From the IMG/VR virus record IMGVR_UViG_3300035497_000625: a stretch of 64,000 nucleotides of DNA; one strand, 5' to 3'. Within the stretch, counting starts at the first letter, position 1; each line of letters starts with the position of its first letter. A program made the position numbers and the translations under genes. The notes beneath the pieces were generated by a model. It did no database searches, was not told the DNA's origin, and was given only the letters and a program-made list of their open reading frames with translations. This DNA is from an uncultured virus (IMG/VR IMGVR_UViG_3300035497_000625) (lineage: Duplodnaviria > Heunggongvirae > Uroviricota > Caudoviricetes). Shown here in pieces: positions 30,557-53,126 of the stretch.

Positions 30557-30781
30557 AATTTCCTACTTTCTCCCACACTGTACCAGTGGGCGGTTTAGTC
30601 TTTGGTTTGTTTCCTTTACTGTACTTACATTATAGCATACTAGGGCGGAAATGTCAACATTTTAATTGTAAACAATTTGTTAACAATCAATTAAAAAATT
30701 ATGAACGTTTTTTCTGTTGGTTTTATACTATTATAATAGTATAAGGGGTTAAATTTAGACTATAATAGTATACAGTCAGCC

Positions 30782-30952
30782 GTTCTACGGCAACTAGTAC
30801 AGCACTGTTCTACGGCAACTAGTACAGCACTGTTCTACGGCAACTAGTACAGCACTGTTCTACGGCAACTAGTACAGCACTGTTCTATGGTGACTAGTAC
30901 AGCACTGTTCTATGGTGACTAGTACAGCACTGTTCTATGGTGACTAGTACAG
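30782..30952. repeat. 25-bp tandem repeat, about 7 copies
   Basis: GTTCTACGGCAACTAGTACAGCACT x4 then GTTCTATGGTGACTAGTACAGCACT x2 plus a partial copy; no spacers. Confidence 0.95.
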
Positions 30953-31074
30953 TTCAAAATTGGTATAAGATGCCAATTTTGACAACTCCGCATACTGGTA
31001 GAAATTTCCAATTGAAAATTGGAAATTTTTTTCCAATTCTGGAAAACATTACCATTTCCAGAAAATTGGTAAAT

Positions 31075-31143
31075 GAGCTGGAGCTGGAAGGAGCTGGAAG
31101 CTCCTAGAGGAGCTGCGAGGAGCTGGAGCTGCGAGGAGCTGGA
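31075..31143 (+). repeat. GAGCTGG cluster 1
   Basis: Multiple co-oriented GAGCTG(G/C) motifs in non-coding DNA. Confidence 0.85.
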
Positions 31144-31497
31144 AAATTTTTTCCAGCTCGTGAGCGGTGCTCCGTGGCCTAGGCTCACGGCGGAGCGCTG
31201 CCGCGCCGCTGGCTGGTAGAGCTTACCAGTCCCAGCACTGGCGGCTGATCCTGGCCGCCGATCGGGCGACGCTTTAGCACACTAAAGCGATAAATCGTGC
31301 TCCTCTAGGACCGCTCCTTTAGGACCGCTTGCTTCCAATTTTTGTTAATTCCACAGTGATAATAAGAAAAATTTTTTTCGCTCCTCTAGGGATGGTAGGA
31401 GATGGAAATTTTAAATTTCCCTCTAGGCTTTCAGCAGATGGTAATTTTTGTTAGTTCTAAAGTAATAAAAAGAGGTGGGATTTCTCCCACCTCTTTT

Positions 31498-31710
31498 TTA
31501 TTTCGTTATTATTTCTAAGGTAATCAAGTCTTCTGATTGGTAGACCTCTGTTGCGACTGCTCGTATTTGTCGCACCTCTAGGTCTTGGTATTCTTTGGGC
31601 ATTTTTTCTTTTCCGCCGAAATAGATTTCTTTATCGAGATAATCAACCTCTTTTATAATGCTTATAGTCTCTAGAGTTCCTACCATTGTTAACATTTCTT
31701 TGATTTTCAT
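31498..31710 (-). CDS. Small hypothetical protein (MKIKE family)
   Basis: Own promoter, terminator at 31468..31498; similar to 43253 and 38639 ORFs. Confidence 0.75.
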   Translation of the reverse strand: MKIKEMLTMVGTLETISIIKEVDYLDKEIYFGGKEKMPKEYQDLEVRQIRAVATEVYQSEDLITLEIITK

Positions 31711-31914
31711 ACAATCACCTTTAACCTTTCTGTTGGTTTTGTTTTCTTTCCTTTACTGTAATTATATTATACCATAATCAAGAGAGAATGTCAAGTTTTT
31801 AATTGTAAACAATTTGTGAACATTTATTAATAAATTTATTAAGGTAAATACTAGTAATTTTCTTTTAACGTTTCGCAAGTCCTAGAGGAGTACTCCTCTA
31901 GGTTGCTTTTTTAT

Positions 31915-32355
31915 TTACTTTTCCGTGCCGAACGTTCCTATTATTTCACCGTGATTGTTACGTACTGCTGTTATTTCGCCGTCAAGTTTTGGTAGTACTT
32001 TCCATATCTGTTTGAGTGTATATTCATATATTTTTCTTTCGATTCCGTTCATAGTAAAACTTTTTTGGTAATACTCATATATTTGTACGTATGTTTCTAT
32101 TAGTGTATTGATTGATAAGTTTATCTTTTCGCCGTCTATTCCAGTAGTATTAACTCGAGATTGTTTTATATTGATGTGGTGCTTTTGGTTTTGTTTGTCG
32201 TTATTCTTTTTGATTACCTTGTCTAGTTCGTTTCTAAACTCTATAACGTTTTTACCATAATAGAAGTAATACTCAATTACTTCTTTTAAGTCGTTTGTCT
32301 CTAATGCAACGATTGGGTTTGATAGAAACTTTTGAGAATAAACTGTATATTTCAT
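31915..32355 (-). CDS. Hypothetical protein
   Basis: Own promoter and leader; start at MKYTVY. Confidence 0.7.
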   Translation of the reverse strand: MKYTVYSQKFLSNPIVALETNDLKEVIEYYFYYGKNVIEFRNELDKVIKKNNDKQNQKHHINIKQSRVNTTGIDGEKINLSINTLIETYVQIYEYYQKSFTMNGIERKIYEYTLKQIWKVLPKLDGEITAVRNNHGEIIGTFGTEK

Positions 32356-32647
32356 AATAATACTCACTTTCTGCCCCTCTAGGGCGGTTGTTGTTTTGTT
32401 TTATCTTATGTATATATTATACACCTAATTGACCTAAAAGTCAATGAACAAATTGTAAACATTTTTTTAATAAATTGTGAATACATTTCTTACCAAAAAT
32501 CAAGAGAAAAAGAGAAACAGTTTAAAATTTTCAATCCCCTAAATTAAAGCCGTAGAAAATACTATCCCCTATTCCGCTCGTTGGTAAAATTTAGTATCCC
32601 TCTAGTGATTTAAAAGTTGGTACCCCTCTAGAGGGGTACCGCCCCTC

Positions 32648-33007
32648 TTATTTTTTAATTTTTAATTCCTTAAAGGCTTGTATTACTGCTTCTTTCCTTT
32701 GGTGTGGTTTAGTCCCCTCTAATTTTCTTGTACTGCTTTCGTTAGTTTCTAGGTTTGTCACTGTTGCTATATAGTCCTCGTTATCTCTTTCTATTATCCA
32801 GTCGATTTTGTCTTCCATGTATGCTTGAGTAACTGCTTTCCATTGTCTATTCTGTTTACTCTTTAGATATGTTAGATGTTTCTTTGCGTCTTCTCTTGTT
32901 TGATATACTGTATAGTCTCTAGTCACCATGTATACCCACTCTACTACTCTTTTTCCGTCTACGTAGTCAACACTTTTTTTCATTTCCTTGATTTCATATG
33001 TTTTCAT
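32648..33007 (-). CDS. Hypothetical protein, paralog of 30185..30556
   Basis: High sequence similarity; own promoter and leader. Confidence 0.8.
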   Translation of the reverse strand: MKTYEIKEMKKSVDYVDGKRVVEWVYMVTRDYTVYQTREDAKKHLTYLKSKQNRQWKAVTQAYMEDKIDWIIERDNEDYIATVTNLETNESSTRKLEGTKPHQRKEAVIQAFKELKIKK

Positions 33008-33183
33008 AATTTACCTACTTTCTCCCACTGTAACCCGTGGGCGGTTTGTCTCTAGTTTGTTTCTTTCCTTTACTGTACTTATATTATAGCACATTCAAAC
33101 TAGTTTGTCAAGCATTTTTTTAAAATTTTTTAATTTTTTTTTGGTATTCCTCTAGAGGGTTTGCCCCTCTAGAGGTTTTACTA

Positions 33184-33459
33184 TTAGGCTTTTTCGTTTA
33201 GTCTCTTGATAGTTTCTTTAAAAGTCTTTTGTGGATTAAACACGGACTCTTTTACACCATTTGCCATTACTGTTTCATTGTAGCAGATACTAAGCATAGA
33301 GATAAAGCCTTCTACTATTTTAGTTGGCGTGCTTTCTGCTTTAACAAGTTGATAGTTTTCGGATAGCGTTCCAATCAAGATGTAGTTTTCCTTTATCTCT
33401 CTTGGTTCTACTATGTAGCAGTATCCAGCTTTTTCCTCGTATCCATAAACTTTTTTCAT
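33184..33459 (-). CDS. Hypothetical protein
   Basis: Start moved to MKKVYG after AAAGGAAG RBS. Confidence 0.7.
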   Translation of the reverse strand: MKKVYGYEEKAGYCYIVEPREIKENYILIGTLSENYQLVKAESTPTKIVEGFISMLSICYNETVMANGVKESVFNPQKTFKETIKRLNEKA

Positions 33460-33592
33460 AATGATTACTTCCTTTCGGTTTTTGTTTCTTTCCTTTACTG
33501 TACTTATATTATACCACATTCAAACTAGTTTGTCAAGCATTTTTTTAAAATTTTTTAAATTTTTTTTGGTATTCTTCTAGAGGGATACCCCT

Positions 33593-33763
33593 CTAGTAAG
33601 AATTGCTAATCTGTACCATTTGTTTGTCGGTTTTACATTGGTAGCAGTAGAGGGTTTTTAAATGTCCATTCTTCGTTATTCTGTTTGCTTTTTTAGGCAT
33701 TACCATTTTAACACCACAAGTTGGACATTGAAAAACTCGTAAAGTCACGGTTCTTTTTTTCAT
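33593..33763 (-). CDS. Small zinc-ribbon protein (56 aa)
   Basis: Translated by hand: MKKRTVTLRVFQCPTCG...GHLKTLYCYQCK; GAAAGGGGG RBS. Confidence 0.75.
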   Translation of the reverse strand: MKKRTVTLRVFQCPTCGVKMVMPKKANRITKNGHLKTLYCYQCKTDKQMVQISNSY

Positions 33764-33764
33764 A

Positions 33765-33932
33765 TTAGCAACCCCCTTTCTGTAGTAGGGTTGCCACTAT
33801 TTGGAATGTATTCCAACTTGAAAGCGTTCCGCCGTCAATCTTGTTGTTGGCGTTCACCTCTAGGAAAGAGACTAGAACCCACACTATTATTACTATTCCT
33901 ATTGTTGTCATAACCTTTTCAAACTTTTTCAT
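33765..33932 (-). CDS. Small membrane protein (55 aa)
   Basis: Translated by hand: MKKFEKVMTTIGIVIIVWVLVSFLEV...; promoter and GAAAGGA RBS. Confidence 0.7.
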   Translation of the reverse strand: MKKFEKVMTTIGIVIIVWVLVSFLEVNANNKIDGGTLSSWNTFQIVATLLQKGGC

Positions 33933-34146
33933 ACTTAATCAAATCCTTTCAATTGTGTTGTGTTTGTCGTTTCCTTTACTGTACTTATATTATAGCATAT
34001 CCCCAATAAAAAATCAATAGTCAAATTGCACAAACTTTAAACTATAACTTTGTGCATAATGCCATATTGACTTTTTTCTAAAGTCGTGGTATAATATATA
34101 CATAAGATAAAACAAAACAAGAGATAATTAGAAAGGTGGATGTTTT

Positions 34147-34350
34147 ATGGTAGAGTATACTAATAAAATGACTGGAGAAAGAAAGCAACTTGATAAAGAG
34201 GAGTTTCTAGAATTAATGGCAACTCTAAAACAAGAGGCAAAAGAAAACAAGCAACTAAAAAGAGAAATAGCAAAAAAGAAATACCAAAGGGAGAAAGCCA
34301 AAGAAACGGCAAATAACACTTATCTAGGAAAAATATTAAAAAACTCCTAG
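34147..34350 (+). CDS. Small basic hypothetical protein (67 aa)
   Basis: Plus-strand promoter at 34067..34095 and GAAAGGTGG RBS. Confidence 0.7.
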   Translation: MVEYTNKMTGERKQLDKEEFLELMATLKQEAKENKQLKREIAKKKYQREKAKETANNTYLGKILKNS

Positions 34351-34425
34351 AGGATACTCTAGAGGGGTACCGCCCCTCTAGAAAAAACATCTTGAAAATT
34401 GAATATTAGAAGGGATTGTGATTAT

Positions 34426-34896
34426 ATGCAATTAGTAATTATTTTCTTTGTATGTAGTTTAATTAATGTGATGTTATCCACATTAAAAACCGTGTTGACT
34501 GTTAAAGCAAATAAGCAAACAGCGTCATTTATTAATGCTTTTGCATATGGCTTTAATGCTATAGTATTAAAGCAGTTGACTTCGTTAGATACCCTTACAA
34601 CTGTTATAGTTGCTATCTTAACTAATTTAATTGGTGTATATATTAGTTTAACTATTATTGAAGCAATAAAGAAAGATAGTCTATGGAAAATTTCGGTAAC
34701 GTCTGCTACTGATATAGAGTCAATACTATTAAAGTATAATATATCTTATATATGCAATAGTGTTGAATGCAAGGGTAAAAAATACTTTTACTATGAAATG
34801 TTTAGCGAAGGAAAAAAAGAAAGTGAAATAATTAAAAACATTTTGCAAGAATATAACGTAAAATATAACGTGGTTGAAATTAACAAAAATCTATAA
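34426..34896 (+). CDS. Membrane protein, DUF2179/DUF5698-like
   Basis: Three N-terminal hydrophobic helices plus soluble C-terminal domain; terminator at 34897..34930. Confidence 0.65.
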   Translation: MQLVIIFFVCSLINVMLSTLKTVLTVKANKQTASFINAFAYGFNAIVLKQLTSLDTLTTVIVAILTNLIGVYISLTIIEAIKKDSLWKISVTSATDIESILLKYNISYICNSVECKGKKYFYYEMFSEGKKESEIIKNILQEYNVKYNVVEINKNL

Positions 34897-35037
34897 TAAA
34901 GAGGGTGTAATTTTACACCCTCTTTTTTTTATATACTGACGTAGTAAACCAATAGGAATAGTAGATAATTTCGCCGCCATGGTATAAAATGGTAATCCTC
35001 TAGGTATAAAAAAAATGGCGGTTCAACCGCCATTTCA

Positions 35038-35427
35038 CTATTTTAATTTTTCCATTGTCTTTTTTATTTTGGTTTGTATTTCCTCTAGGCATATCCATTC
35101 CCCTAATCTATCATTATAATAGAACGTTGTCCCTTCGGTGTTGTCTAGTCCTTTAGTGGTTCTTCCAATATCGTCTAGTACGTCTATTAAGGCGTTGTAA
35201 CTGTCTTCGTCCTCTACTCTTACTATTTGAGCGTATTCCATAAGAGCGTAGAGTGTTTCGTCTGTCATGGTATCTATTACCATATCTTCAACTAGGACGG
35301 TTATTCCGCTTTCTGCGTCCCAATCGTCTTTGTCTGCTTGTAGCTTTATTCCGTCATGCTTTAAGCACTCGATTAGGCTTGTGAATACTCTTCCATCATT
35401 TGCCATGTATGCATTTATCTTTTTCAT
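35038..35427 (-). CDS. Hypothetical protein (A.DG..F...EC family)
   Basis: YMANDGRVFTSLIECLKHD motif shared with 38092 and 63078 ORFs; start corrected. Confidence 0.75.
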   Translation of the reverse strand: MKKINAYMANDGRVFTSLIECLKHDGIKLQADKDDWDAESGITVLVEDMVIDTMTDETLYALMEYAQIVRVEDEDSYNALIDVLDDIGRTTKGLDNTEGTTFYYNDRLGEWICLEEIQTKIKKTMEKLK

Positions 35428-35610
35428 AATTCCAACTTTCTCCCACACTAACCAGTGGGCGGTCTCTCTTGGTTTGTTTTCTTTCCTTTACTGTACTTAT
35501 ATTATAACATACTCAAACGAGTTTGTCAAGCGTTTTTTAAAAATTTTTTTAATTTTTTTTAATTTTTTTGGTCTCCCTCTAGGGGTCTAGAGGGAGACCC
35601 CTCTAGAGGT

Positions 35611-35928
35611 TTAACGAGTTTTTCCGATAAAGTCCCAACAGTTATAGGCACTGTACCAACTGAAGAACACGATTTCGTTATCTTCGGTAATTGGGACGTA
35701 CTCGCCCGCTATCATACCGTATTTTAGACTATTAGACCCCTCTAGGACTGTAGTTATATTTGCGATTTTCCATTTATATCTTTCTGGTATCGTTTCTATG
35801 AATTTTTTCTTTTCCTCTTGGTCTTGGAAGATTATTCCTTTGAGTTGTCTATTTAGTACTGCTTTAGTGAATTGTTGAATGTTCATTGTAACTACTTCTA
35901 ACTCATTAGTAACATACATCTTTACCAT
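35611..35928 (-). CDS. Hypothetical protein
   Basis: Own promoter and leader. Confidence 0.7.
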   Translation of the reverse strand: MVKMYVTNELEVVTMNIQQFTKAVLNRQLKGIIFQDQEEKKKFIETIPERYKWKIANITTVLEGSNSLKYGMIAGEYVPITEDNEIVFFSWYSAYNCWDFIGKTR

Positions 35929-36085
35929 AATTTCCTCTTTCTCCCACTGTAAACCCGTGGGCGGTTCAATCGGTTTATTTCCTTTACTGTACTTATATTA
36001 TAACACATTCAAACTAGTTTGTCAAGCGTTTTTTAAAAATTTTTTAAAAATTTTTTTTGGTGCTTTCCTCTAGAGGTCTAGAGGG

Positions 36086-36568
36086 TTACCCCTCTAATTC
36101 CTCTAGAATGCCATATAGTGCCATTACTACGTCATAAGTACTGGAGACCTTAACCCCTTTTCTATTGGAATCTTCTTCCCATTCTGTTAATACTTCGGCA
36201 TTGTCGTCAACTAGATAGATATTATCATATTTTCCAGTGATTGCCATGTGTTTTGGTGTTCCATAAGGTTGTACTGTAACATCATTTTCAAGAGTAGGTA
36301 TATACATTTTTAACCATGTTCTTTTTTCTTTTTCGGTCTGCTTTAAGTAGTCGGTACTAGAATTTTTTGCACCCCATGAGATAACCCCAAATTCTACCCC
36401 TTTGTGGAATAGTTTAGTTAGTATCTCCTCTAGGTCTCTTTGATTGAATAGAGGTTTAGCCGATAGGTATGCCCCTTTTTCTTCTTTTACTATTTTTGGT
36501 AACCAGTCCTCTACGTTGTATAGGTCTGCTATTGTACCGTCCATATCAAAGTAAACTTTTGTTTTCAT
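36086..36568 (-). CDS. HAD-superfamily phosphatase, 5'(3')-deoxyribonucleotidase-like
   Basis: Motif I FDMDGTIAD, motif IV LVDD. Confidence 0.8.
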   Translation of the reverse strand: MKTKVYFDMDGTIADLYNVEDWLPKIVKEEKGAYLSAKPLFNQRDLEEILTKLFHKGVEFGVISWGAKNSSTDYLKQTEKEKRTWLKMYIPTLENDVTVQPYGTPKHMAITGKYDNIYLVDDNAEVLTEWEEDSNRKGVKVSSTYDVVMALYGILEELEG

Positions 36569-36977
36569 AATCATTACTTCCTTTCAATCTTTTGTTTTCC
36601 TTTACTGTACTTATATTATAGCACATTTAAATTAGTTTGTCAAGCGTTTTTTAAAAATTTTTTAAAAATTTTTTTTGGTCTCCCTCTAGAGGGAGACCCC
36701 TCTAGTTATTTTCTGCTTTTCTTTCTTGTGCTTTTCCTTGTGGTCTGTTTGTTAGTATCAACAGATAGAACACAGAAAAATAGTAATATATAAATTAATA
36801 CCATTTTGCATTTCTCCTTTCTTTCTCCTCTTGATTACAATATTATTATACCATATCCACACTAGAAAATCAATAGGCAAATTACACAAACTTTGATTTA
36901 AATTTTTGTTTCTTTTTGTGCATTTCGCCGCCGAAAAAATACCAAATAAAAAGGCGGTACAGTGTACCGCCTTGGTT

Positions 36978-37508
36978 CTATTCTTGGTCTTGTGCTTTTT
37001 CTTTTGCTTTTTCCTCTAGGGCTTTTTGCTTTTTGTCTGTTTCCTCTTTTGCTTTTTCTTTTGCAAGTTTCAACTCTTCTCTTCTTTTCAAGTCTTTTTC
37101 TTTTTTAGCGTTCTTTTCTGCTTGCTTTTTGGCTTTCTCTTCTGCTTTTGATTGTACAGATTTGGCGTATACTTCCGCTTCTGTTAGTCTGTCGTAGATT
37201 TCAGTGGTTGAAATACCGCTTGATGTTTTTCTAGAGGTTTCTGTTATTGCTTTTGCCGTCATTTCTACATTGACGCATACTTCTATAGGGAATCCCCCTT
37301 CATCTTCTACCGTCCCCACTGCTACGCTAATAGCGTAGCCTTTACCACTGGTATCTTTAAATACCTCGCTGACGTTTTCTTCGCCGTATTCCTCTAGTAG
37401 TTTGCTTAGGATAAAGGCATTTAATAATTCTTTTGCCTTATTTTTTACTGTTGTACTGTTCTTTGTGGTTAGGGACATTTCTTCGGTAAAGTTAACTAGA
37501 TTTCTCAT
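36978..37508 (-). CDS. Unknown protein, four-copy family member 1
   Basis: AISVAVGTVEDEGGFPIEVCVNVEMTAKAI core plus Lys/Glu-rich tail. Confidence 0.85.
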   Translation of the reverse strand: MRNLVNFTEEMSLTTKNSTTVKNKAKELLNAFILSKLLEEYGEENVSEVFKDTSGKGYAISVAVGTVEDEGGFPIEVCVNVEMTAKAITETSRKTSSGISTTEIYDRLTEAEVYAKSVQSKAEEKAKKQAEKNAKKEKDLKRREELKLAKEKAKEETDKKQKALEEKAKEKAQDQE

Positions 37509-37645
37509 AATTCCTACTTTCTCCCACTGTAAACCCGTGGGCGGTTAATCTTTGGTTTATTTTCTTTCCTTTACTGTACTTATATTATAGCACATTTAAA
37601 ATTTTTTGTCAAGCATTTTTTGTGAAAGTTTTGTGAAAACATTTT

Positions 37646-37906
37646 TTAGTAATTTTGAGACATATCCCCCAAAATTCTTTTATTGTAAAACACTGTAAAG
37701 ATTATACCATTACTAGCGTTTCCATCTTCTTCTATATTGGAGTATGTTCTCATACTGGCGACTTTTAACTCTTTAACCTTATGTGGTTTTGGTACATTCT
37801 GTAAGAAACGTGTTGTTAAAGGGGTAACGCCATTTTCTGTTATTACTTCAACGATAATATAACAGTCTCTGTTTGTTATTTTATCAGTTATATGTTTTAT
37901 TCTCAT
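37646..37906 (-). CDS. Small hypothetical protein
   Basis: Own promoter and leader. Confidence 0.7.
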   Translation of the reverse strand: MRIKHITDKITNRDCYIIVEVITENGVTPLTTRFLQNVPKPHKVKELKVASMRTYSNIEEDGNASNGIIFTVFYNKRILGDMSQNY

Positions 37907-38091
37907 AACTTCCTCTTTCTCCCACTGGAAACCCGTGGGCGGTTAGTCTTGGTTTTTCCTTTACTGTACTTATATTATAGCACATTCAAACTAGTTTGTC
38001 AAGCATTTAATTGTAAACAATTTATTAAGGATTTTTTTTGGTAATTCCTAGAGGGATACCCCTCTAGGGTTACCAATCTTTACTAATCTTA

Positions 38092-41235: not shown

Positions 41236-41279
41236 TGAAAATAGAAAAAAGTGGTAAGGAAATCCTTACCACTGCCAAC

Positions 41280-44834: not shown

Positions 44835-45320
44835 TCGAGAGGGGATAGTATCCCCTCCCTATTCTTTTATATAGTCAATACCTTATTATATAAAATATTG
44901 GGTCTGTCTATTGTCTTACCATGTAAGACATCATCTCGTTATCTTATCTGGCAAGGCATTACTACATTAATACCTTATGTAATAAGGTATTCCTCTAGAG
45001 GGGTCCAGGCTTCCAGTTTCTGCCAAACCGCACTGGTGCAGGCATTGCCGACCAGATGGTAAAATCTGGGAGTCGGAAACCACACAGGTATGTGGTTTAC
45101 CAAAAAATTCCAGCCGCGCCGATCAGGCCCGTTTCCAGTTTCTGCCAATACACACAGGTACGTGGTTTACCAATCTTTACCAATAGGTCGCAATCCACAT
45201 AGGTATGTGGTTTACCAAAAATTTCCAGAGCAGGTCGCGCTTTTCCAATTTTTACCAATTCCTCTAGGAATTGGAAAAGTTTACCATGGAAATTTCCATG
45301 GAAATTTCTACCATACGTAT

Positions 45321-45565
45321 GAGCTGGAAGGAGCTGGAAACCGTATGAGCTGGAAAAAGCTGCCAGCTCTGTGAGCTGGAAGGAGCTGGAAGTCAAATGA
45401 GCTGGAAGGAGCTGGAAGTCAAATGAGCTGGAAAAGGTTACCACCTCTAGGAGCTGGAAAAGGTTGCCATTACCAAATGAGCTGGAAGAGGTTGCCATCC
45501 CTGTGAGCTGGAAGGAGCTGGGAGCTGAATGAGCTGGAAGCTCATTACCATGGAAGGAGCTGGAA
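45321..45565 (+). repeat. GAGCTGG cluster 3
   Basis: Dense co-oriented GAGCTGGA motifs. Confidence 0.9.
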
Positions 45566-45603
45566 CCTCGACCTGTATCGCCCGTTGCTTCCAATTTTTA
45601 CCA

Positions 45604-45787
45604 TGTAATCGATTACAACCGCATAACTACGTTCCCAGATTCTGGTGGACCTCTAGGAAATTTTTACCAATAGAAAAAAGAAAAAAGATGTGGAGCCGCC
45701 TGGAAATTTTTACCATGTAAACGATTACATTTCCAGAGGTTGCCAGTGTTCCTCTAGGAGGAAATTTTTGCCATGTAAACGATTACA
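45604..45787. promoter_or_regulatory. Three TGTAA(A/T)CGATTACA cre/LacI-family-like operators
   Basis: Copies at 45604 (perfect palindrome), 45716, 45774. Confidence 0.6.
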
Positions 45788-45853
45788 TGAAAATGGAAAA
45801 GAGTGACAAGGTAATCCTTGCCACTCCATTTTCCAGTTTATTTCCTTGGTAAT

Positions 45854-46393
45854 CTATTCCTCTTCCTCATTGGCAACCTCTGCCTTGGTAGCCTTTTCCT
45901 CTAGTTCCTTTTGCTTTCTGTCAGTTTCTGCCTTGGCTTGCTCCTTGGCAATTCTTAGCTCTTCTCTTCTCTTGGCATCCTTTTCCTTTTTGTCATTCTT
46001 TACCTTTTCCTTTTCAGCTTTCTCTTTGGCTTTCTTTTCCATCTCATTTTGGTATATCTCAGCTTCTGTTAATCTGTCGTAGATGTCAGTAACTGACACT
46101 CCACTAGAGGTTTTCCTAGAGGTGGTAGTTATTGCTTTGGCAGTCATTTCCACGTTAACGCATACCTCTATAGGGAATCCGCCCTCGTCATTAACAGTTC
46201 CTACCGCTACGCTGATTGCATAGCCTTTACCATTTGTATCCTTAAAGACTTCAGAAACATTTTCCATACCAAACTCTTCCACTAGTTTCTCTAGTATGAA
46301 TTTGTTAAGGATTTCCTTTGCCTTATTTTTAACAGTAGTGCTGTTCTTGGTAGTTAGACCCATCTCTTCAGTGAAATTAACATAGTTAGCCAT
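45854..46393 (-). CDS. Unknown protein, four-copy family member 3
   Basis: Near-identical core to members 1 and 2. Confidence 0.85.
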   Translation of the reverse strand: MANYVNFTEEMGLTTKNSTTVKNKAKEILNKFILEKLVEEFGMENVSEVFKDTNGKGYAISVAVGTVNDEGGFPIEVCVNVEMTAKAITTTSRKTSSGVSVTDIYDRLTEAEIYQNEMEKKAKEKAEKEKVKNDKKEKDAKRREELRIAKEQAKAETDRKQKELEEKATKAEVANEEEE

Positions 46394-47127
46394 ATAGACC
46401 TCTTTCTCCTACACTAACCAGTAGGCGGTTTAATCAAGTTTTTATCTCTTTTCTATGATACTATTATATCATATTCTAGCCGATTTGTCAACCCCTTAAT
46501 TGTAAACATTTTATTAAGGTTTTTCTTGGTAGTCGGCTCTCTGTCCGCTGGTGTCTTTCCCTTTACTGTACTTCTATTATAGCACATCTAGAGCAGAAAG
46601 TCAACCCCTTAATTGTAAACATTTTATTAATACATTTCTTGGTATCTACATTTCCATCCCCTGCCTTTCTGCCCCTCTAGGGCGTTCCTTATCTTTACTG
46701 TACCTATATTATAGCACATTCTACGGGCGGATGTGTTAACATTCTGTAAATAAATTATGAACAGTTTGTAAATACAATTACTGCCAAAAAATCAGGAGGA
46801 ATGGTAAGAATTGGGAGCCGCCCATAAGCCCGCCTTCCATTTTTTGCCAAACCACGTAGATACGCCCCTGTTAAACTCTGGTAACAACGTAGGTACGCCC
46901 TCTATTTTTCCAATCTCCACCAGTGCGAATTACCAACCCCTCCCAATTTTCACGCAGTCTACCGCTTTCGACCCTATTAACCAATAGATGGGGTTAAAAA
47001 GTTGAACCCCTCCAAACAACACACCTATGCAGTTCTCCGCACCCATTCGCATACTGACCCCTTGGAAAATTCTGGGGTGGATTGTAGATGCGTAGGTATC
47101 GCCCCTCAATAGGTACGAGGTTTCAAT

Positions 47128-47570
47128 GAGCTGGAAAAAGCTGGAAGGAGCTGTGTGAGCTGTGAGCTGGAGGGTCTATGAGCTGGAGACCTAGAGGAGC
47201 TGGAGGCCTCTAGGAGCTGTGGATGAGCTGGAAAAAGCTGGAAGGAGCTGCGTGTCAATAGGAGCTGGAAGGAGCTGTGAGCTGGAAGGAGCTGTGAGCT
47301 GGGTCAATAGGAAGTGAGCTGGGGAGCTGGAGACCTCTAGGAGCTGGAGACCTCTAGGAGCTGGAAAATCAATAGGAAAAGAATTGAGACCCTCCCATAT
47401 TTTCGCCGCCGCGTCAACTCCAGTGAGCTGTGTGAGCTGTGAAATCTCTAGGTTAGCTGGACGCGGGCGAATTGTCAACTAGATAAAGGCTGATGAGCTG
47501 GAAAAACGTTTAATGGTTTCGCCGCGAAATTACAAATTGTCAACCTCTAGGAGCTGTGTGGGCTGGAAAC
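47128..47570 (+). repeat. GAGCTGG cluster 4
   Basis: Dense co-oriented GAGCTG(G/T) motifs mixed with CCTCTAGG and TCAATAGGA. Confidence 0.9.
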
Positions 47571-47651
47571 CCTAGAGGAGTTGGTGTTTGTTACCACTAT
47601 AAGAAAAAAACCCTAGAGGAGTACCTCTAGGGATATAAAAAAGAGGAGGGG

Positions 47652-48209
47652 TTATTCCCCCTCCTTAGTTTCCTCTTGAGCTGTGTCGCTCTTGGATTCC
47701 TTTTGAGCCTTGATAGCTTCTCTTCTCTCCTTGTCCTTTTGCTTCTTGGCTTCCTTTTCCTTTTCCTTATTCGCCTTGGTCTGTGCCTTTTCCTCTAGGG
47801 CGTTCTTATAGATTTCTGCCTCTGTTAGTCTGTCGTAGATGTCGGTGTAGGATGTGCCAGATGCTGTCTTCCTAGAGGTAGCTGTGATTGCCTTTGCAGT
47901 AAGCTCAACGTTGACACAAACCTCGATTGGGAAACCGCCCTCATCTTCAACAGTTCCAACTGCCACACTGATTGCTCTGCCCTTACCATTAGCATCCTTA
48001 AAGACCTCACTCACATTCTCTTCTCCGAAGACCTCTAGGAGTTTTTTCATTATTAGTTTGTCTAAAGCTTCCTTTGCTCTATTCTTAACGGTTGTGGATT
48101 GCTTTGTAGTTAAATCGCTAAAATCAACTCTCATAGTACTCTCCTTTACCTCTAGGTTCTCTTGGTTTACAACTTCATTAACATTAGTATTAGCAGTAGT
48201 ATTTGTCAT
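47652..48209 (-). CDS. Unknown protein, four-copy family member 4
   Basis: Same core; start corrected to MTNTTAN after leader hairpin and RBS. Confidence 0.85.
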   Translation of the reverse strand: MTNTTANTNVNEVVNQENLEVKESTMRVDFSDLTTKQSTTVKNRAKEALDKLIMKKLLEVFGEENVSEVFKDANGKGRAISVAVGTVEDEGGFPIEVCVNVELTAKAITATSRKTASGTSYTDIYDRLTEAEIYKNALEEKAQTKANKEKEKEAKKQKDKERREAIKAQKESKSDTAQEETKEGE

Positions 48210-48307
48210 AACGACCTCTTTCTCCAACACTAGGTAGTTGGCGACCTCACTATTCGTTTCTCTCATTTACTATAATTATTATACCACAGGCTGTGGACTT
48301 TTTCAAC

Positions 48308-48520
48308 TTAGTTGCTCTTGCTAGAGTAGGTGATGTAGAATCTCTCGGTGAAGTGTGCTGATGGAGATTGACCCTCTCTGATACGTGAGTCTAGGTTGTC
48401 GAGCCAAAGTCTAAAGGCTGAGGTCTTTGATGGGATGTATTCGTCAAGGAATAGTTTTAGCTCTACTCCATCAAAGCACTCATGGTATCTGTTGGTTTCC
48501 TTATCATAAACTGTATACAT
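48308..48520 (-). CDS. Small hypothetical protein
   Basis: Start corrected to MYTVYD after GAAAGGAG RBS. Confidence 0.7.
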   Translation of the reverse strand: MYTVYDKETNRYHECFDGVELKLFLDEYIPSKTSAFRLWLDNLDSRIREGQSPSAHFTERFYITYSSKSN

Positions 48521-49018
48521 AAGCTTTTCTCCTTTCGGTTTCTCTCTCTCATTTACTATAGATATTATATCATAGAGTGGAGGTTTTTTCAACTGGGTGA
48601 CCCCGCCTATTTTGTGAGCCTCTAGAGGATAGCCCCTCTAGTTTATATGACCAAAAGCTCCTCTAGGGTAGTCCCCCCTTTAATCAATAGGAATAGGTCT
48701 GGGGTATCCCTCCCCTCATTTTCTATTATAATTATAGCATAGTTTGTGAAATTTTTCAACTAAATCAATAGGAAAAGAACAAAGCCCGCCATAAAACAGT
48801 TAAAAAGTATATTAGAAATTGTATAGTGTGGACGATTTTATGTGGTTTCGCGGCGAAAAATGTATTGGTTTTGATAGAATAAAGGACGATTCTGTTTGAT
48901 TTTGTGTAGAATACGCCCCTTTTTATGTATAAAATTGAATGTATTTGATGTTTTCTAGAGGAGTTTTGTCAATATAATTGTGCCCGCGAGCTGTAAAAAG
49001 CTATGAGCTGGAACGCCT

Positions 49019-49846
49019 CTAGGTTTCTTCTTGAATATTATACTGTCCCTTTATTCTGTCATACATCTCTTTTGCTTCATTATTAGTTTCTAACTCCTCT
49101 AGACTAAAATCATCAATCTTATAGCTGATATAGTAATAAACTTCACTAATCTTAAATGATGGGATAGCCCCGCCTTTTCGATTAGGAATAATACCCTCCC
49201 TGTATTCAATTAGACCTACCCCTCTAAGAAATATTAAAGCTTTTCTTATCTCTGCATCTGTATGGGCACTGATAGTATAACCTAGTGTATCTCTAATTTG
49301 TTCAAAGGTTAACACTTTAAATTGTCTATGCTGGAATACACAAGTATCTCTATAGGCACAACATAATAAATATAGTTTTAATTCTAATTCTGATACCTTA
49401 AATGTCTTGTTTAACGTTTCTAGTGTAGTCTCTGGCACTGGAGTAAAAGGTTTTGGACATGGTATATAGTACACTCCATTCTTTTCATATCTATATCTGG
49501 ATGTCCAAACGCTAAAACATTCTTTATCAACTGCTTTTAGATATTCTTTACGGTCTTCATAATCCCCCTCATTAATATATGTAAATTGATATTCTCCATT
49601 ATAAGAGACTAATTGTGATTGTTCTAATTGATACATATATCTTTTAACTGTCTTGTCAGTAATACCAATTGCTTCTTTTATTTTAGTTAGCATTAAATCT
49701 TTTTGTCTGAACATTCTAGTGTTCTCAGGGTATGAAGCTAAACCTGAAATACAATTTAAATACGTATATAGTTTCATTGGATTATCCACAATCTTCTCCT
49801 CCTTTACTGGCATTGATGCAGAATTTTCTGGTTGTTGCTTATGCAT
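49019..49846 (-). CDS. Candidate replication initiator (tandem winged-helix-like)
   Basis: Two HTH-like segments (TKIKEAIGITDKTVKRYMYQLEQSQLV; FEQIRDTLGY...IRKALIFLRGVGLIEY); iteron-like repeats directly upstream. Confidence 0.55.
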   Translation of the reverse strand: MHKQQPENSASMPVKEEKIVDNPMKLYTYLNCISGLASYPENTRMFRQKDLMLTKIKEAIGITDKTVKRYMYQLEQSQLVSYNGEYQFTYINEGDYEDRKEYLKAVDKECFSVWTSRYRYEKNGVYYIPCPKPFTPVPETTLETLNKTFKVSELELKLYLLCCAYRDTCVFQHRQFKVLTFEQIRDTLGYTISAHTDAEIRKALIFLRGVGLIEYREGIIPNRKGGAIPSFKISEVYYYISYKIDDFSLEELETNNEAKEMYDRIKGQYNIQEET

Positions 49847-49942
49847 TATTACATTCCTCCTGTTTTTATTTTCTGGTAATTGCTTACCTATAATTTATGT
49901 ATAATTCCCAGTTAGGAATTATAGAAAAGTCGGAATCGGATT

Positions 49943-50229
49943 TTTTTCTACCGTTCTCGAAAATTTTTCTACCGTTCTTAGAAAATTTTTCTACCGTTCC
50001 TCGGATTTTTTTCTACCGTTCTTCGGAAATTTTTCTATCATATAGTATGATATGGGACAAGGTAGAAAGATAACGTAGAAAATAACGAACTCTTTATTGG
50101 AATTTTAGTTCGGATAACGATATGGAAAATTCTCACAAAAATTTTTTTCAATAGTTAACCAAAAGGAAAAATCACAAAAAGTTCTACCAAACTTCACAAA
50201 AAGTTCTACCGAAAATCACAAAAAGTTCT
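49943..50229. repeat. Iteron-like repeats, candidate origin
   Basis: TTTTTCTACCGTTC at 49943, 49964, 49986, 50008; TCACAAAAAGTTCT at 50172, 50194, 50216; 21-22 bp periodicity. Confidence 0.75.
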
Positions 50230-50789
50230 GTCAATCCCTATCAATTTTCCTGTCAATTTTTTAGGTAGGTCTTATCAAAATTTTATGTAGGTCTATCAAT
50301 TTTTTTCTTTTTTGATTGCTCTTTAAATCAAAAGGAAATCAACCCATAACCTTACTCCCTTACTATGCCGATTAACCTCAACCCATAACCTCAAACCAGT
50401 AACCCTCCTCTTTAATTAATCAAAAGAAAAAGAACCAACTCTCCTTTAACACCTCTTAAGTAATAACAAACACAATTTTCTCAAATCTTTTCCTCCCTCT
50501 TATTGCCGTCAAAATTTACGTTAACGTTAAACGTTAAAGGACTACTGGGAAAAATTGTTTTGCAATAAGCCTCACAGCTCCGCTGTTCGTTTATTGCAAA
50601 AAATTTTTCCTCTTCGGAAATTGTTTTGCAACAAGCCTCACAGCTACGCTCCGCTCCGCTGTTCGTTTGTAGCAAAAAATTTCCGTTCTTTCTTTTTTTT
50701 TAAATTTAAATCAAGAGGAAAAGAAAAAAGAAGGAAGTAATAGTAATACGACTAACAAAACCTAAGTAACAACAAACAAAATTTTCTCT

Positions 50790-51110
50790 TTAATTTTTCG
50801 TCCACCCCAAATAGGAATTTAAAAACCTATTAAAGACCTCTAGTCCTTTAGAATTAAATCTCCAACTACTACGCCCGCCGTTAAAATCCTTACCAATACT
50901 AATCAACTCCCTCACGCTATAGTCATTGAGTAGGTTTTCGGGGCAATATGAGTAGTCGATTCCACTAGGGGAAATCAGTACTGGAGTATCACTTGCCTTG
51001 CCCTTTAAAATTAATTGGGGAAGCTCCACTGGAACTCCCCTTAATCTCGCTATTTCTTCAACGCTTAGTCCAAACTCTGCGTCCATTTTAATATCGTCTG
51101 TTAGTCCCAT
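50790..51110 (-). CDS. Hypothetical protein with N-terminal HTH-like segment
   Basis: GLSVEEIARLRGVP. Confidence 0.6.
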   Translation of the reverse strand: MGLTDDIKMDAEFGLSVEEIARLRGVPVELPQLILKGKASDTPVLISPSGIDYSYCPENLLNDYSVRELISIGKDFNGGRSSWRFNSKGLEVFNRFLNSYLGWTKN

Positions 51111-51111
51111 T

Positions 51112-51777
51112 TTATTTCCTCTCTATTATGAATCGATTGCCTTTGTCTGTTGTTATAAGTAGTCCTGTGGTTTTTGACTCTATTATTTGTTGATAGGATT
51201 CAAGGATTCTTTTAGTATAGATTTGATTAACTTTGTTATCTCGATAGTAGGGGTGGTCAGATTGGATTTGCTCTTTAATGTAGGTTTCAACCTCAGGCTC
51301 ACTAAAGAAAATTGTTACAGCATCTAGTAGTGTTTCTGCCCCAGCCGTCATAAAGCACGTTCCATCACTATAGTAGCCTTTTACGGAATAAGGGAAACGG
51401 CTTTCTTTAGGAATTATTTCAACCGTTACATCCTCATACTCACAATAGGTTTGCCCGCTATTAACTGCGTCTGCAATCATTTCTTTTAAATCGTTAATTG
51501 CTATTGATATTTGGCGGTCAATAAAAGCGTCATAACCCTCAGGGTCAAGGGTTTTAAATACTTCGTCATACTCGTAAGCTACTCCAGTTGGAAGCACTAT
51601 TGATTCATGGGCATAGACTAGACGAGTATCGATTGTTTCGTAGTAGTTTGACTTCTCAATTATTTCGTCCGCCGTCTCAAAATCATTTCCGTTTACTCGA
51701 TAGATGTAGTTGGAACAGATTTGATTTATGTTTTCCTTTTGACATAGTTTATTTAAGAATAGGTTTGATTCGTTCAT
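51112..51777 (-). CDS. Hypothetical protein
   Basis: AGGAGG RBS; C-terminal part loosely resembles 53427..53783. Confidence 0.7.
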   Translation of the reverse strand: MNESNLFLNKLCQKENINQICSNYIYRVNGNDFETADEIIEKSNYYETIDTRLVYAHESIVLPTGVAYEYDEVFKTLDPEGYDAFIDRQISIAINDLKEMIADAVNSGQTYCEYEDVTVEIIPKESRFPYSVKGYYSDGTCFMTAGAETLLDAVTIFFSEPEVETYIKEQIQSDHPYYRDNKVNQIYTKRILESYQQIIESKTTGLLITTDKGNRFIIERK

Positions 51778-51803
51778 ATGCTTTTCCTCCTTTAAGATAT
51801 GGA

Positions 51804-51891
51804 TGGTAATTGTAAATACGGAGAGCGTAGCTCGGAGTATTTACAATTACCAGACACGGCGACATCTTGGAGCGTAGCTCCAAGTGTCGTC
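51804..51891. repeat. Two hairpins carrying GAGCGTAGCTC
   Basis: 16-bp stem TGGTAATTGTAAATAC/GTATTTACAATTACCA, then CTTGGAGC-GTA-GCTCCAAG. Confidence 0.9.
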
Positions 51892-51931
51892 TACTTAACG
51901 TGGTTTTTACTTACTTGATTTGCGGGCGAAA

Positions 51932-52678
51932 TTACCTCATATAGAAACAAACTATTTGGTCGAATACTTGAACGTATTTGAGATTTGAACTTAAAGCTTC
52001 GTGGAATCTATAGCTAATGTATTCGTTTGTATCACTTACTAATTCTCTAGTAAAGCCTTCTAGGTCTCCTTCACTTGGTTCATCGCCGTCATAATATGAT
52101 TCGAAAGCTTCGATTAGGTCGTCCTCTGTTGGGTATGTAGTGTTGATATAGTCATTAACGTATTCATCAATAGAGGAATATTGCTTATCAAAAGCTAGTA
52201 AGTCGTCATTTGTAAGATGGTAGGTTGAGAATTGAATCTTTCCAGTATCATTCCACTTGTCTAGTATTTGCTCTACTGCATAGTCTGGGAGGTCTCTTTT
52301 TGAATTAAGATATTTGGCTTTTAAAGCAATTTTCTCTAAGTCGTTTTCTCTCTCGCTTTCACTCTCTAGCTCCTCTATGTCTTCCTCTGTAAGAATGTCC
52401 ATCTCTCTTTGGGAGAAGACTGGCTCGTCTACCACACCCTCTGATAAGATTCTATCAAGGTCGCTATCAATACAACAATCGTCATCATCCTCATATTCCC
52501 CCTCACATATGTCTTTAATCAATAGGTAGTTACCTATTTGTGTTGCTTTGCCCGCACAAAGATAAGGTAAAGTCTCTGTTAGTCTTGGATGGAAATCAAG
52601 CACTGTACCTACTTGAGCGTAGTTGATGCAAGATTCGATAAATTCAGTACCATCAGCAGTAAAGATTAAAATACTCAT
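51932..52678 (-). CDS. Highly acidic hypothetical protein
   Basis: Start corrected to MSILIF; Asp/Glu-rich. Confidence 0.7.
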   Translation of the reverse strand: MSILIFTADGTEFIESCINYAQVGTVLDFHPRLTETLPYLCAGKATQIGNYLLIKDICEGEYEDDDDCCIDSDLDRILSEGVVDEPVFSQREMDILTEEDIEELESESERENDLEKIALKAKYLNSKRDLPDYAVEQILDKWNDTGKIQFSTYHLTNDDLLAFDKQYSSIDEYVNDYINTTYPTEDDLIEAFESYYDGDEPSEGDLEGFTRELVSDTNEYISYRFHEALSSNLKYVQVFDQIVCFYMR

Positions 52679-52788
52679 ATAAGCCTCTTTCTCCGACACT
52701 TAAGCAGTCGGCTCTTTAACTTTGCTTTTCTCATTTACTATAGTTATTATACCATAGACTGTGGGTTTTTTCAATTGAGTTACTCGGG

Positions 52789-53121: not shown

Positions 53122-53126
53122 CCCTC

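Follow-up and report, generated by a model that had tools for sequence, protein, structure and literature searches.

A small folded RNA element is common to the 5′ leaders of 15 early genes in the 64-kb window, the whole stretch of DNA that we analysed. Exactly 15 leader copies with the layout CCNAC-loop-GUNGG-AGAAAG-SD-AUG were present (SD, Shine–Dalgarno sequence; chance expectation 0), all of them in mRNA sense on the minus strand. The data support selection on a structure in the RNA, held at a constant (zero) distance from the ribosome-binding site: AGAAAG directly abuts the stem, without a spacer, in 15/15 copies, and the spacing between the −10 hexamer and the stem is variable (28–42 bases). 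The preliminary description had listed about 15 hairpin sites, and 15 of the 15 that it named were recovered, with coordinates off by at most 1 base.

Searches of the window with the exact pattern CCCAC-N3-12-GTGGG gave 11 matches, compared with 0.08 expected from shuffles. The permissive pattern CTTTCTCCNACN{7,10}GTNGG, which leaves both middle stem bases free, gave 15 matches (0.00 expected), and the middle bases were complementary in 15/15 window copies (C-G 11, U-A 2, A-U 1, G-C 1). A covariance model (CM) built from the window copies recovered exactly these 15 with scores of 48.5–65.2 bits, the next match reaching 18.3 bits. Hairpin and SD together are the best-conserved part of the cassettes in which they lie, with a mean pairwise identity of 0.80 vs 0.55 for the coding starts. 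The modules and related features are given below, where S1 is the candidate second helix described in the following section.

Module 1: 30554..30604 (−), upstream arm, hairpin 30572-30590 CCCAC/GUGGG, AGAAAGUAGG, AUG of 123-aa ORF; CM 59.4 bits; candidate S1 ACCG:UGGU
Module 2: 33005..33055 (−), hairpin 33024-33041 CCCAC/GUGGG, AUG of 119-aa ORF; CM 51.0 bits; candidate S1 AACC:GGUU
Module 3: 35425..35473 (−), hairpin 35442-35459, AUG of 129-aa ORF; CM 64.8 bits; candidate S1 GACCG:UGGUU
Module 4: 35926..35975 (−), hairpin 35943-35961, AUG of 105-aa ORF; CM 62.8 bits; candidate S1 GAACC:GGUUU
Module 5: 37506..37555 (−), hairpin 37523-37541, AUG of 176-aa ORF (paralog family A); CM 63.8 bits; candidate S1 AACC:GGUU
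Module 6: 37904..37953 (−), hairpin 37921-37939, AUG of 86-aa ORF; CM 62.5 bits; candidate S1 AACC:GGUU
Module 7: 38476..38524 (−), hairpin 38493-38510, AUG of 128-aa ORF; CM 65.2 bits; candidate S1 AACCG:UGGUU
Module 8: 38927..38976 (−), hairpin 38944-38962, middle pair U-A (CCUAC/GUAGG), AUG of 96-aa ORF; CM 65.2 bits; candidate S1 AGACC:GGUUU
Module 9: 42139..42188 (−), hairpin 42157-42174, AUG of 165-aa ORF (family A); CM 62.8 bits; candidate S1 UAACC:GGUUA
Module 10: 42679..42727 (−), hairpin 42696-42713, AUG of 70-aa ORF; CM 59.6 bits; candidate S1 ACCG:UGGU
Module 11: 43070..43119 (−), hairpin 43087-43105, AUG of 70-aa ORF; CM 63.2 bits; candidate S1 ACCG:UGGU
Module 12: 43484..43533 (−), hairpin 43501-43519, AUG of 77-aa ORF; CM 61.3 bits; candidate S1 ACCG:UGGU
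Module 13: 46391..46439 (−), hairpin 46408-46425, middle pair U-A (CCUAC/GUAGG), AUG of 179-aa ORF (family A); CM 63.1 bits; candidate S1 AACCG:UGGUU
Module 14: 48207..48255 (−), hairpin 48224-48241, middle pair A-U (CCAAC/GUUGG), AUG of 185-aa ORF (family A); CM 48.5 bits; candidate S1 altered on both sides to AGGU:ACCU
Module 15: 52676..52725 (−), hairpin 52693-52711, middle pair G-C (CCGAC/GUCGG), AUG of 248-aa ORF; CM 57.2 bits; candidate S1 altered to AAG:CUU
Structural analogue: 32353..32400 (−), different stem GCCCU/GGGGC with loop AGA, likewise ending exactly at AGAAAG, before a 150-aa ORF; CM only 12.8 bits
Promoter-leader cassette array carrying the modules: 27807..63647 (−), sigma-A-type promoters TTGACA-17-TGnTATAAT

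Covariation of the stem and a probable second helix

When all column pairs in the alignment of the window copies were compared, the middle pair of the hairpin stem (S2) covaried most strongly. Compensatory stem changes had been proposed earlier, and the paired changes at this middle position are real; since it is the only stem position that varies in the window, the window alone contributes only ∼3–4 independent events. The decisive covariation evidence comes from other phage contigs. Scanning viral contigs with both middle stem bases left free yielded 84 matches. Those in a leader context (ATG 3–10 nt after the SD) had a Watson–Crick middle pair in 59/60 cases (G-C 31, U-A 13, C-G 9, A-U 6), compared with only 6/24 of the matches without ATG. 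Covariation, whose absence the preliminary description had named as an argument against its proposal, is present in the window and, decisively, in viral contigs. Folding energy was unexceptional for the 50-nt modules (z-scores of −1.33 to +0.54 vs shuffles), the hairpins reach no more than −4.6 to −8.7 kcal/mol, and for one copy the pairing probability within the full leader is 0.09.

The earlier reading as a plain hairpin was right about the stem and is probably wrong about the fold, since S1 would add a second helix; judging from leader alignments, the fold is probably an H-type pseudoknot that includes the hairpin as one of its helices. S1 would pair 3–5 bases just 5′ of the stem with the first loop bases, and at least 15 different sequences are used. 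If linkers were flexible, S1 could form in 34/42 distinct leaders, compared with a mean of 20.6 and a maximum of 28 for permuted loops (0/2000 reached 34); it was absent from the other 8/42 leaders of this wide scan. The non-window leaders alone formed S1 in 19/27 cases vs 14.1 when permuted (3/2000), whereas support within the window alone was weak (per-variant shuffle P of 0.05–0.35). In a fixed register across 43 distinct leaders, 75.6% of the S1 cells paired, with changes on both sides at all 3 pairs. The covariation score of the whole structure was 0.355 vs 0.108 for shuffles (0/500 reached 0.355) and 0.027–0.053 for slid controls. S1 also contains G-U pairs (GU 4, UG 4), as do helices of related phages; such pairs would be A-C mismatches on the opposite strand, which supports the mRNA sense. 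Many contigs share several unpaired bases that the search pattern leaves free, namely a linker G before the stem, a linker U following the 5′ arm and an AGU preceding the 3′ arm; this conservation may be a sign of specific recognition and not of a generic role.

Cassettes and helices of related phages

The minus strand carries 39 promoter-like sites, and 14/15 modules lie behind one of them; between 29.0 and 48.9 kb, 16 promoter sites match the consensus at 12/12 positions. CTAG-containing palindromes with an A-run after them occur upstream of many promoters, show no U-tract in the sense direction and are distinct from the leader element. An SD-like polypurine run, AAAGGAAAG, is found near the predicted mRNA 5′ end. 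The ORFs downstream of the element are small early genes of at least eight unrelated families, and their proteins belong to no Pfam or PHROG family, nor was an RNA-binding domain detected in them. The structure predicted for the family A protein was poor (mean pLDDT 53.9). Related-phage contigs contain joints between different cassettes within the promoter/leader repeats (35431>35937, 35462>43119, 42177>43119 and 43153>46484), and this comparison makes the element a single module within repeated promoter-leader cassettes, which relatives exchange by recombination.

In five related phage genomes, the same site is occupied by sequence-unrelated hairpins or pseudoknots, and the helix always stops exactly at the AGAAAG in the SD region. 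Among 49 leader clusters (window plus the five genomes), 19 had a helix of ≥4 bp ending right at the AGAAAG junction, compared with a shuffled mean of 1.9 and maximum of 5, while end offsets of 2–6 from the junction were at background level. No fewer than 10 unrelated stems occur at this junction. The structural analogue at 32353..32400 has its hairpin in the minimum-energy fold (−7.7 kcal/mol). The pseudoknot types of the relatives comprise GAG:CUC with CCG:CGG, AAGAG:CUCUU with AUG:CAU or CUG:CAG, and AUUGAC:GUCGGU with GUG:CAC, and 98.9% of their cells pair. The ‘P/Q/R’ types of the relatives have a first helix of 3–5 bp, a second helix of 3 bp and an A-rich third loop; module 15 is the window copy nearest in sequence to the ‘P’ pseudoknots. 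Single genomes can hold several types, three of which co-exist in some. Unrelated helices at the same spot in sister phages argue against a protein-binding tag, proposed in the preliminary description, in its sequence-specific form. Contigs of other phages carry one or two copies of the element, often before a gene family starting with MAN/MAT.

The element matched no Rfam 15 family. At the gathering score, the window gave 0 matches, and 98 kb of the early regions of five relatives gave two tRNAs only; at E ≤ 10 (window 35.3–39.1 kb) and E ≤ 5 (relative L380), weak matches appeared, none of them on the element. Full-text literature searches did not find it either; both results support its earlier designation as undescribed.

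Possible function of the leader fold

We tentatively favour a reading, given here a little under an even chance, in which the element acts generically and in cis as a structured cap over the ribosome-binding site and travels on promoter-leader cassettes that are shuffled. A generic role is favoured by the different pseudoknot types that relatives carry at this place and by the variety of gene families behind the window element. What was observed is the structure, with its covariation, exact position and spread; an effect of the fold on mRNA stability or translation is what we infer. S2 is a 5-bp hairpin with a 3′ arm that reaches exactly to the start of the extended SD, AGAAAG(N)AGG; together with S1 (3–5 bp) it would very probably form a compact H-type pseudoknot of ∼30 nt. 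A strong host-type promoter, leader, pseudoknot and SD would make up portable cassettes, placed before unrelated small early genes and shuffled by recombination. Acting in cis, the fold would close off the ribosome-binding site at its 5′ edge; with a bound ribosome it could halt 5′-to-3′ decay, and it could shield the SD from pairing with upstream sequence on primary or read-through transcripts. It might also form an end-to-end stack with the SD:anti-SD helix, in a geometry that is conjectural. Either effect would result in high, context-independent early expression. Structures abutting the SD have been reported to reduce initiation in E. coli models, which counts against the cap reading, and, with 28–42 nt between the −10 hexamer and its start, the structure lies inside the primary transcript rather than at the 5′ end, so that a processing step must be assumed. 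For Bacilli, 5′ leader structures with strong SDs are described as stabilising whole mRNAs without translation (PMC3997798).

The pseudoknot could instead be an operator for a trans-acting regulator, either a phage early protein, e.g. the product of the MAN/MAT family, the one most often found behind the element, or a small ligand, that turns translation of a set of early genes on or off in the manner of a riboswitch or of the autoregulation of T4 gene 32. We consider this unlikely, although small pseudoknot riboswitches at the SD have a similar size and topology, the pattern-free unpaired bases are conserved across contigs, and 1–2 copies per contig in other phages, often before the MAN/MAT family, are the distribution expected of an autoregulatory leader. 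The T4 gene 32 leader pseudoknot is described as giving autogenous control (PMC3014915). Difficult for this explanation are the sequence-unrelated hairpins and pseudoknots at the same position in sister genomes, with three types in single genomes, the variety of gene families behind the window element, the lack of an Rfam match even at E ≤ 5–10, and downstream proteins without a detected RNA-binding domain.

That the leader is a mere homology patch for cassette recombination, its fold having no RNA function, appears quite improbable. Related-phage contigs do switch cassettes inside the promoter/leader repeats, the leader is common to unrelated genes, and crossovers in T4-type phages are placed in or beside the stem-loop of the PeSL (promoter-early stem-loop) cassette (PMC2839356); recombination alone would nonetheless leave unexplained the 59/60 complementary middle pairs, the covariation of the second helix and the exact SD-abutting ends of helices with different sequences. 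A transcriptional pause or attenuation hairpin, timing RNA polymerase at each early gene start, is very improbable: a purine-rich SD rather than a U-tract follows the hairpin, and such a signal needs neither a second helix nor the exact AGAAAG abutment seen with many stems, even though a 5-bp stem with an 8–9-nt loop matches the dimensions of hairpin-dependent pause signals. An element acting in DNA, as a palindromic operator or cruciform downstream of early promoters, is extremely improbable. S2 is a perfect inverted repeat 28–42 bp downstream of strong promoters, but its middle pair varies freely among all four Watson–Crick types, so a protein would not be reading that pair; moreover, the G-U pairs of S1 are valid in the mRNA sense only, the interleaved S1/S2 topology has no dyad, and the constant distance is to the SD and not to the promoter.

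Among known systems, preQ1-I riboswitches (Rfam RF00522) are ∼30-nt pseudoknots immediately 5′ of the SD, as here. The window element likewise appears as a small H-type pseudoknot with a 3′ helix reaching the SD, a likeness that is architectural only: RF00522 gave no match at E ≤ 5–10 in the part of the window and in relative L380 that were searched, loop sequences differ between types with no conserved pocket sequence, and unrelated ORFans rather than queuosine genes follow. Flavivirus exoribonuclease-resistant RNAs (xrRNAs) stop a 5′-to-3′ exonuclease by a compact knotted fold, a function that might be shared; the element gives no sequence or fold sign of their ring-like architecture, and the enzyme would be of the bacterial RNase J type. 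The polypurine stabiliser of SP82 is reportedly a precedent from a phage early RNA.

The 5′ stabilisers of Bacillus (the aprE leader stem-loop with ribosome binding, ermC and cryIIIA) likewise combine leader structure with a strong SD and are described as protecting the mRNA body in organisms with 5′-to-3′ exonuclease activity (PMC3997798). The known examples covered there lie at or near the mRNA 5′ end, whereas the present element is SD-anchored and its hairpin begins 28–42 nt past the −10 hexamer, too far downstream for the near-terminal position of such stabilisers. The gene 32 mRNA leader of phages T4 and T2 also has an H-type pseudoknot 5′ of the ribosome-binding site, but one described as serving a single gene and nucleating the binding of that gene's own product at a distance from the SD (PMC3014915); the window element lies directly against the SD and serves as many as 15 unrelated genes in one genome. 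In the PeSL cassettes of T4-type phages, a strong host-type promoter and stem-loop are repeated before small ORFan early genes, and relatives differ by gene gain, loss and exchange at the repeats, by the account in PMC2839356. Both features recur here, with a consensus sigma-70/sigma-A-type early promoter repeated before ORFan genes in the window and, judging from related-phage contigs, recombination between copies that shuffles genes. Unlike the PeSL stem-loop, which is reported to adjoin the promoter and act as a terminator (PMC2839356), the window element is located within the transcribed leader, reaches to the SD, shows covariation as RNA and is probably a pseudoknot; the phages are of another group, and the presumed host is of another type.

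It is possible, if somewhat doubtful, that the element represents an undescribed class of ‘RBS-capping’ pseudoknot in a wide clade of large uncultured phages, with a mechanism undocumented in bacteria. If true, three candidate mechanisms would present themselves: an operator for a phage-encoded global regulator of early-gene translation, end-to-end stacking on the SD:anti-SD helix that recruits ribosomes, or an xrRNA-like mechanical block of 5′-to-3′ decay by an RNase J-type enzyme.

A hairpin abutting the Shine–Dalgarno sequence

Early mRNAs of this phage carry a structured 5′ leader element, in which a hairpin with a 5-bp stem (CCNAC-loop-GUNGG; stem S2) stands directly against AGAAAG and the Shine–Dalgarno (SD) sequence ahead of AUG. 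The element belongs to cassettes consisting of a sigma-A-type promoter, a leader and an SD in front of small early genes. A preliminary description had placed the motif at 15 sites, and all 15 were recovered, each on the minus strand and thus in mRNA sense. The exact form of the motif matched the window 11 times (0.08 expected), and a pattern in which both middle stem bases were left free matched 15 times (0 expected), with the middle bases complementary in every copy (C-G 11, U-A 2, A-U 1, G-C 1). A covariance model of the element scored the 15 copies at 48–65 bits and nothing else in the window above 18 bits. AGAAAG follows the stem directly in 15/15 copies, whereas the distance from the −10 hexamer to the stem varies between 28 and 42 nt, indicating that the element is anchored at the ribosome-binding site and not at the transcript start. 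Hairpin and SD together were the best-conserved part of the cassette (mean pairwise identity 0.80; promoter 0.67, 5′ leader 0.69, coding starts 0.55, a background level).

The minimum-energy fold contained the hairpin in all 15 modules and in one variant, with a modest hairpin energy of −4.6 to −8.7 kcal/mol. Compared with shuffled sequence, the modules showed no significant excess stability (folding z-scores −1.33 to +0.54). Given these ordinary energies, the case for selection rests on covariation and position rather than on energy. An association between structure and an interrupted SD (AGAAAG without a following G) was marginal (0/24 vs 5/25, P = 0.05). We rejected an RNase III site, for which the stem is too short, and an intrinsic terminator, as there is no U-tract. 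Another early leader (∼53343–53354, minus strand) has a minimal 3-bp hairpin, GCC-CACUGU-GGC, immediately 5′ of a GGAGG SD, and could represent a pared-down analogue.

Decisive support for covariation came from an unbiased scan of viral contigs for the stem followed by AGAAAGAGG, with the middle pair and the loop unconstrained. Of 84 matches, 60 had an ATG 3–10 nt past the SD, and in 59 of these the middle pair was Watson–Crick (G-C 31, U-A 13, C-G 9, A-U 6), as opposed to 6 of the 24 matches lacking an ATG, which is about the chance rate. The covariation proposed in the preliminary description is therefore confirmed for the middle pair; the scan pattern prescribed the four outer pairs, which are uninformative in this set. 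In other contigs the window type occurs once or twice each, often ahead of a gene starting MAN or MAT, and the 15 window copies represent a lineage-specific spread of the module to further early genes.

More specific queries returned little. Patterns requiring the window-specific ACCG prefix gave chance matches only in metagenome contigs (85 loci) and in genome contigs (69 loci, 71 matches); these lacked leader context, and their middle pairs were random. In viral contigs the prefixed pattern hit at least 120 loci; among the matches listed, four had leader-like context, two of which were real. A CGG-suffixed pattern yielded 10 unrelated matches. No close DNA relatives of the window were found among GenBank phages, and the sole match to a 51-nt leader query was MT837012.1, an unannotated 8.5-kb fecal contig. 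Two phages that the capsid protein places further away, Phass-1 (first 50 kb) and Enterococcus phage EF1 (18 promoters), showed no comparable leader structure. The nearest record, G001, is without the early region.

A probable second helix and other structures at the same site

In the window, the start of the loop (GGU) can pair with the bases just 5′ of the stem (ACC, mostly AACC or ACCG), which would add a second helix, S1. Both S1 sides are changed in the two most divergent window copies (AGGU:ACCU and AAG:CUU), although the window copies alone make a weak test (per-variant P 0.05–0.35). When the window copies were pooled with those of other contigs (43 distinct leaders), 75.6% of S1 cells were paired in a fixed register, and all three S1 pairs showed two-sided changes (the middle one, for example, G-C 16, C-G 13, A-U 2). 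The joint covariation score of S1 and S2 was 0.355, compared with 0.108 for shuffles (0/500 reached 0.355) and 0.027–0.053 for slid controls. With linkers of 0–2 nt, an S1 of at least 3 bp could form in 34 of 42 leaders, whereas permuted loops gave a mean of 20.6 and a maximum of 28 (0/2000 reached 34); with the window copies excluded, the figure was 19 of 27 against a permuted mean of 14.1 (3/2000). At least 15 different S1 sequences were seen, including ACCG:UGGU, UGCG:UGCA, AGC:GCU, GGCG:UGCC, CGCG:CGCG and AGUG:UACU; some contain G-U pairs, compatible with the mRNA sense only. These data make it probable that S1 forms, and the strand order S1a, S2a, S1b, S2b would then be that of an H-type pseudoknot with short linkers.

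The early regions of G002–G006, five relatives with nearly complete genomes (139–180 kb), were examined as well. A pseudoknot whose last strand abuts the SD was possible in 42 of 104 leaders with an AGAAAG-type SD (shuffle P ≤ 0.05), and three further pseudoknot types were distinguished, in addition to plain hairpins.

Other predicted structures abutting the SD in the relatives and in the window
G002–G006: pseudoknot, GAG:CUC with CCG:CGG
G002–G006: pseudoknot, AAGAG:CUCUU with AUG:CAU (CUG:CAG in a homologous leader)
G002–G006: pseudoknot, AUUGAC:GUCGGU with GUG:CAC
Window, 32353–32400: plain hairpin, GCCCU/GGGGC

The three pseudoknot types have an A-rich third loop and, in most copies, a two-base linker of AG (AA in one copy). 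When the AAGAG:CUCUU and AUUGAC:GUCGGU types were aligned, 98.9% of cells paired, and the SD-adjacent pair was A-U in 7, G-C in 3 and C-G in 1. Plain hairpins in other leaders of the relatives have unrelated stems (GCUC/GAGC, GUCGG/CCGAC, GCCGA/UCGGC, GGGAU/AUCCC, GGAC/GUCC and CCGC/GCGG). Globally, helices of at least 4 bp ended exactly at the AGAAAG junction in 19 of 49 sequence clusters (shuffled mean 1.9, maximum 5). Helix ends at offsets 2–6 from the junction were at background level, and a second peak at offsets 7–9 corresponded to the first helix of the three other pseudoknot types. Since exact junction ends recur with unrelated sequences, the constant feature is a helix 3′ end touching the first base of the extended SD.

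Cassettes and their surroundings

The window comes from a large tailed phage and encodes terminase and virion proteins; its capsid protein is 34–56% identical to homologues in uncultured gut phages, Phass-1 and large Enterococcus phages. Judged by this protein, Phass-1 (OQ749652.1) is the closest complete relative in GenBank, where it is classified as 'Caudoviricetes code 15 clade'; the long ORFs of the window stay open under table 11. Almost the whole gene set is on the minus strand, which carries 39 sigma-A consensus sites (TTGACA, 17 bp, TGnTATAAT) from ∼27.8 kb to the window end, and 16 sites within 29.0–48.9 kb match the consensus at 12/12 positions. Each promoter heads a leader and one to a few small ORFs. 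None of the 15 proteins downstream of the element had a significant Pfam or PHROG family; they form at least eight unrelated groups, some of which include paralogs (65–82% identity in one four-member family). For family A, paralogous early proteins encoded behind some modules, the AlphaFold model had a pLDDT of 53.9, and a protein-guided search gave no matches in viral contigs, genomes or GenBank phages.

A conserved 18-mer at the leader 5′ end matched ∼20 large viral contigs, and in most of their cassettes the SD follows it without interruption, AAAGGAAAGGAG standing a few bases 5′ of the ATG. Given this direct joining, the long window leaders are an elaboration of a short form. The conserved leader start AAGUACAGUAAAGGAAAG (e.g. 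window 38530–38545; loci L306–L348) is the actual SD region in most related cassettes; in the window it persists close to the mRNA 5′ end as a polypurine stretch resembling an SD, which recalls the polypurine 5′ stabiliser of SP82.

Relatives with 80–99% identity were present among the contigs of freshwater DNA and animal-gut RNA runs; the four sequencing runs compared were all in contig form and had small word shares. Neither coverage gaps nor habitats were counted as evidence. Where these relatives are joined differently from the window, the joints lie within promoter or leader repeats, which agrees with the model of promoter-early stem-loop (PeSL) cassettes in T4-type phages (PMC2839356). 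RNA contig ends from two studies at 48268 and 48270, near one predicted leader start, were read as assembly breaks and not as a transcription start, because 48270 is also a break point of a DNA contig and the promoter sequence is repeated.

Several other features lie among the cassettes. CTAG-containing palindromes (CCCCTCTAGGGG; longer forms flanked by GGTAA...TTACC) form a second repeat between minus-strand cassettes (38605–38640, 38040–38085, 39050–39085 and many other intergenic places); they are followed by an A-run, not a U-run, with the next promoter just downstream, and may be the PeSL-like stem-loop of the window cassettes. Between two cassettes, a tandem array (29774–30139; periods 12, 30 and 125; GCTTAG/GGTACT-like units; ∼30 copies of the 12-mer) shows internal insertions and deletions in relatives' contigs. 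Consensus promoters with minus-strand −10 hexamers at 42365, 46581 and 48736 head transcripts without an obvious ORF that begin with G-run/C-run hairpins (e.g. GGGGGAUUAAACCCC) and are small RNA candidates. A 472-aa protein (53797–55215, minus strand) has a BrxL-like Lon-type ATPase domain (E 4.8e-98) and a BrxL N-terminal domain (E 7.6e-09), making it a predicted homologue of a BREX defence component in the phage early region. Two paralogous phrog_20187 genes of unknown function (39500–40276 and 44067–44834, plus strand) run against the gene flow from their own consensus promoters, in stretches with a G+C of 0.41–0.44 compared with ∼0.33. An HNH/NUMOD homing-endonuclease gene adjoins the terminase gene, and a sigma-factor-like gene, phrog_5767, is also present (23463–24371 and 26292–27494, minus strand).

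Possible roles of the element

The main rival to a general role in expression is an operator bound by a regulator, consistent with the conserved unpaired bases of the element and with its frequent link to one gene family. Sequence-specific recognition is difficult to reconcile with several sequence-unrelated versions in one genome and with a window version that serves unrelated genes. As the sole constant sequence is the SD itself, a generic partner, the ribosome or RNases, is favoured. A CsrA or RegB-type GGA/GGAG target was rejected, as GGAG is missing from several related structure types. Function at the DNA level, or in recombination alone, fits poorly with the covariation.

With a generic partner, the element may cap the ribosome-binding site. 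A compact knot beside a ribosome-occupied SD would strongly block 5′-to-3′ decay once the A-rich upstream leader had been removed, and would shield the SD from whatever lies upstream, which varies in shuffled cassettes and in read-through transcripts. Stabilisation of whole mRNAs by leader structures and strong SDs is documented in Bacilli (PMC3997798). The exact abutment invites a further conjecture. In a host with 16S rRNA of the Bacillota type, whose CCUCC core and UUUCU tail complement AGAAAG(U)AGG, the rRNA 3′ end would lie against the last helix pair and could stack on it.

The cassette organisation is PeSL-like, but the SD-abutting RNA element differs from the PeSL stem-loop. In architecture the element resembles preQ1-I, a small SD-adjacent pseudoknot, but it is not a member of that class; it also resembles the T4 gene 32 leader pseudoknot. 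No Rfam family matched it, and full-text searches, which covered main texts outside subscription journals, found no description.

Structured RNA motifs of phages are poorly catalogued, and the element adds one whose two interleaved helices covary cleanly and whose position, directly abutting the SD, is fixed; it is present in dozens of viral contigs and in 15 copies in one genome. Should it protect or boost early mRNAs, it would reveal how context-independent gene cassettes are built by phages of Gram-positive-type hosts, and expression design would gain a compact, portable part. Should it instead be an operator, the early genes behind it would form a post-transcriptional regulon.
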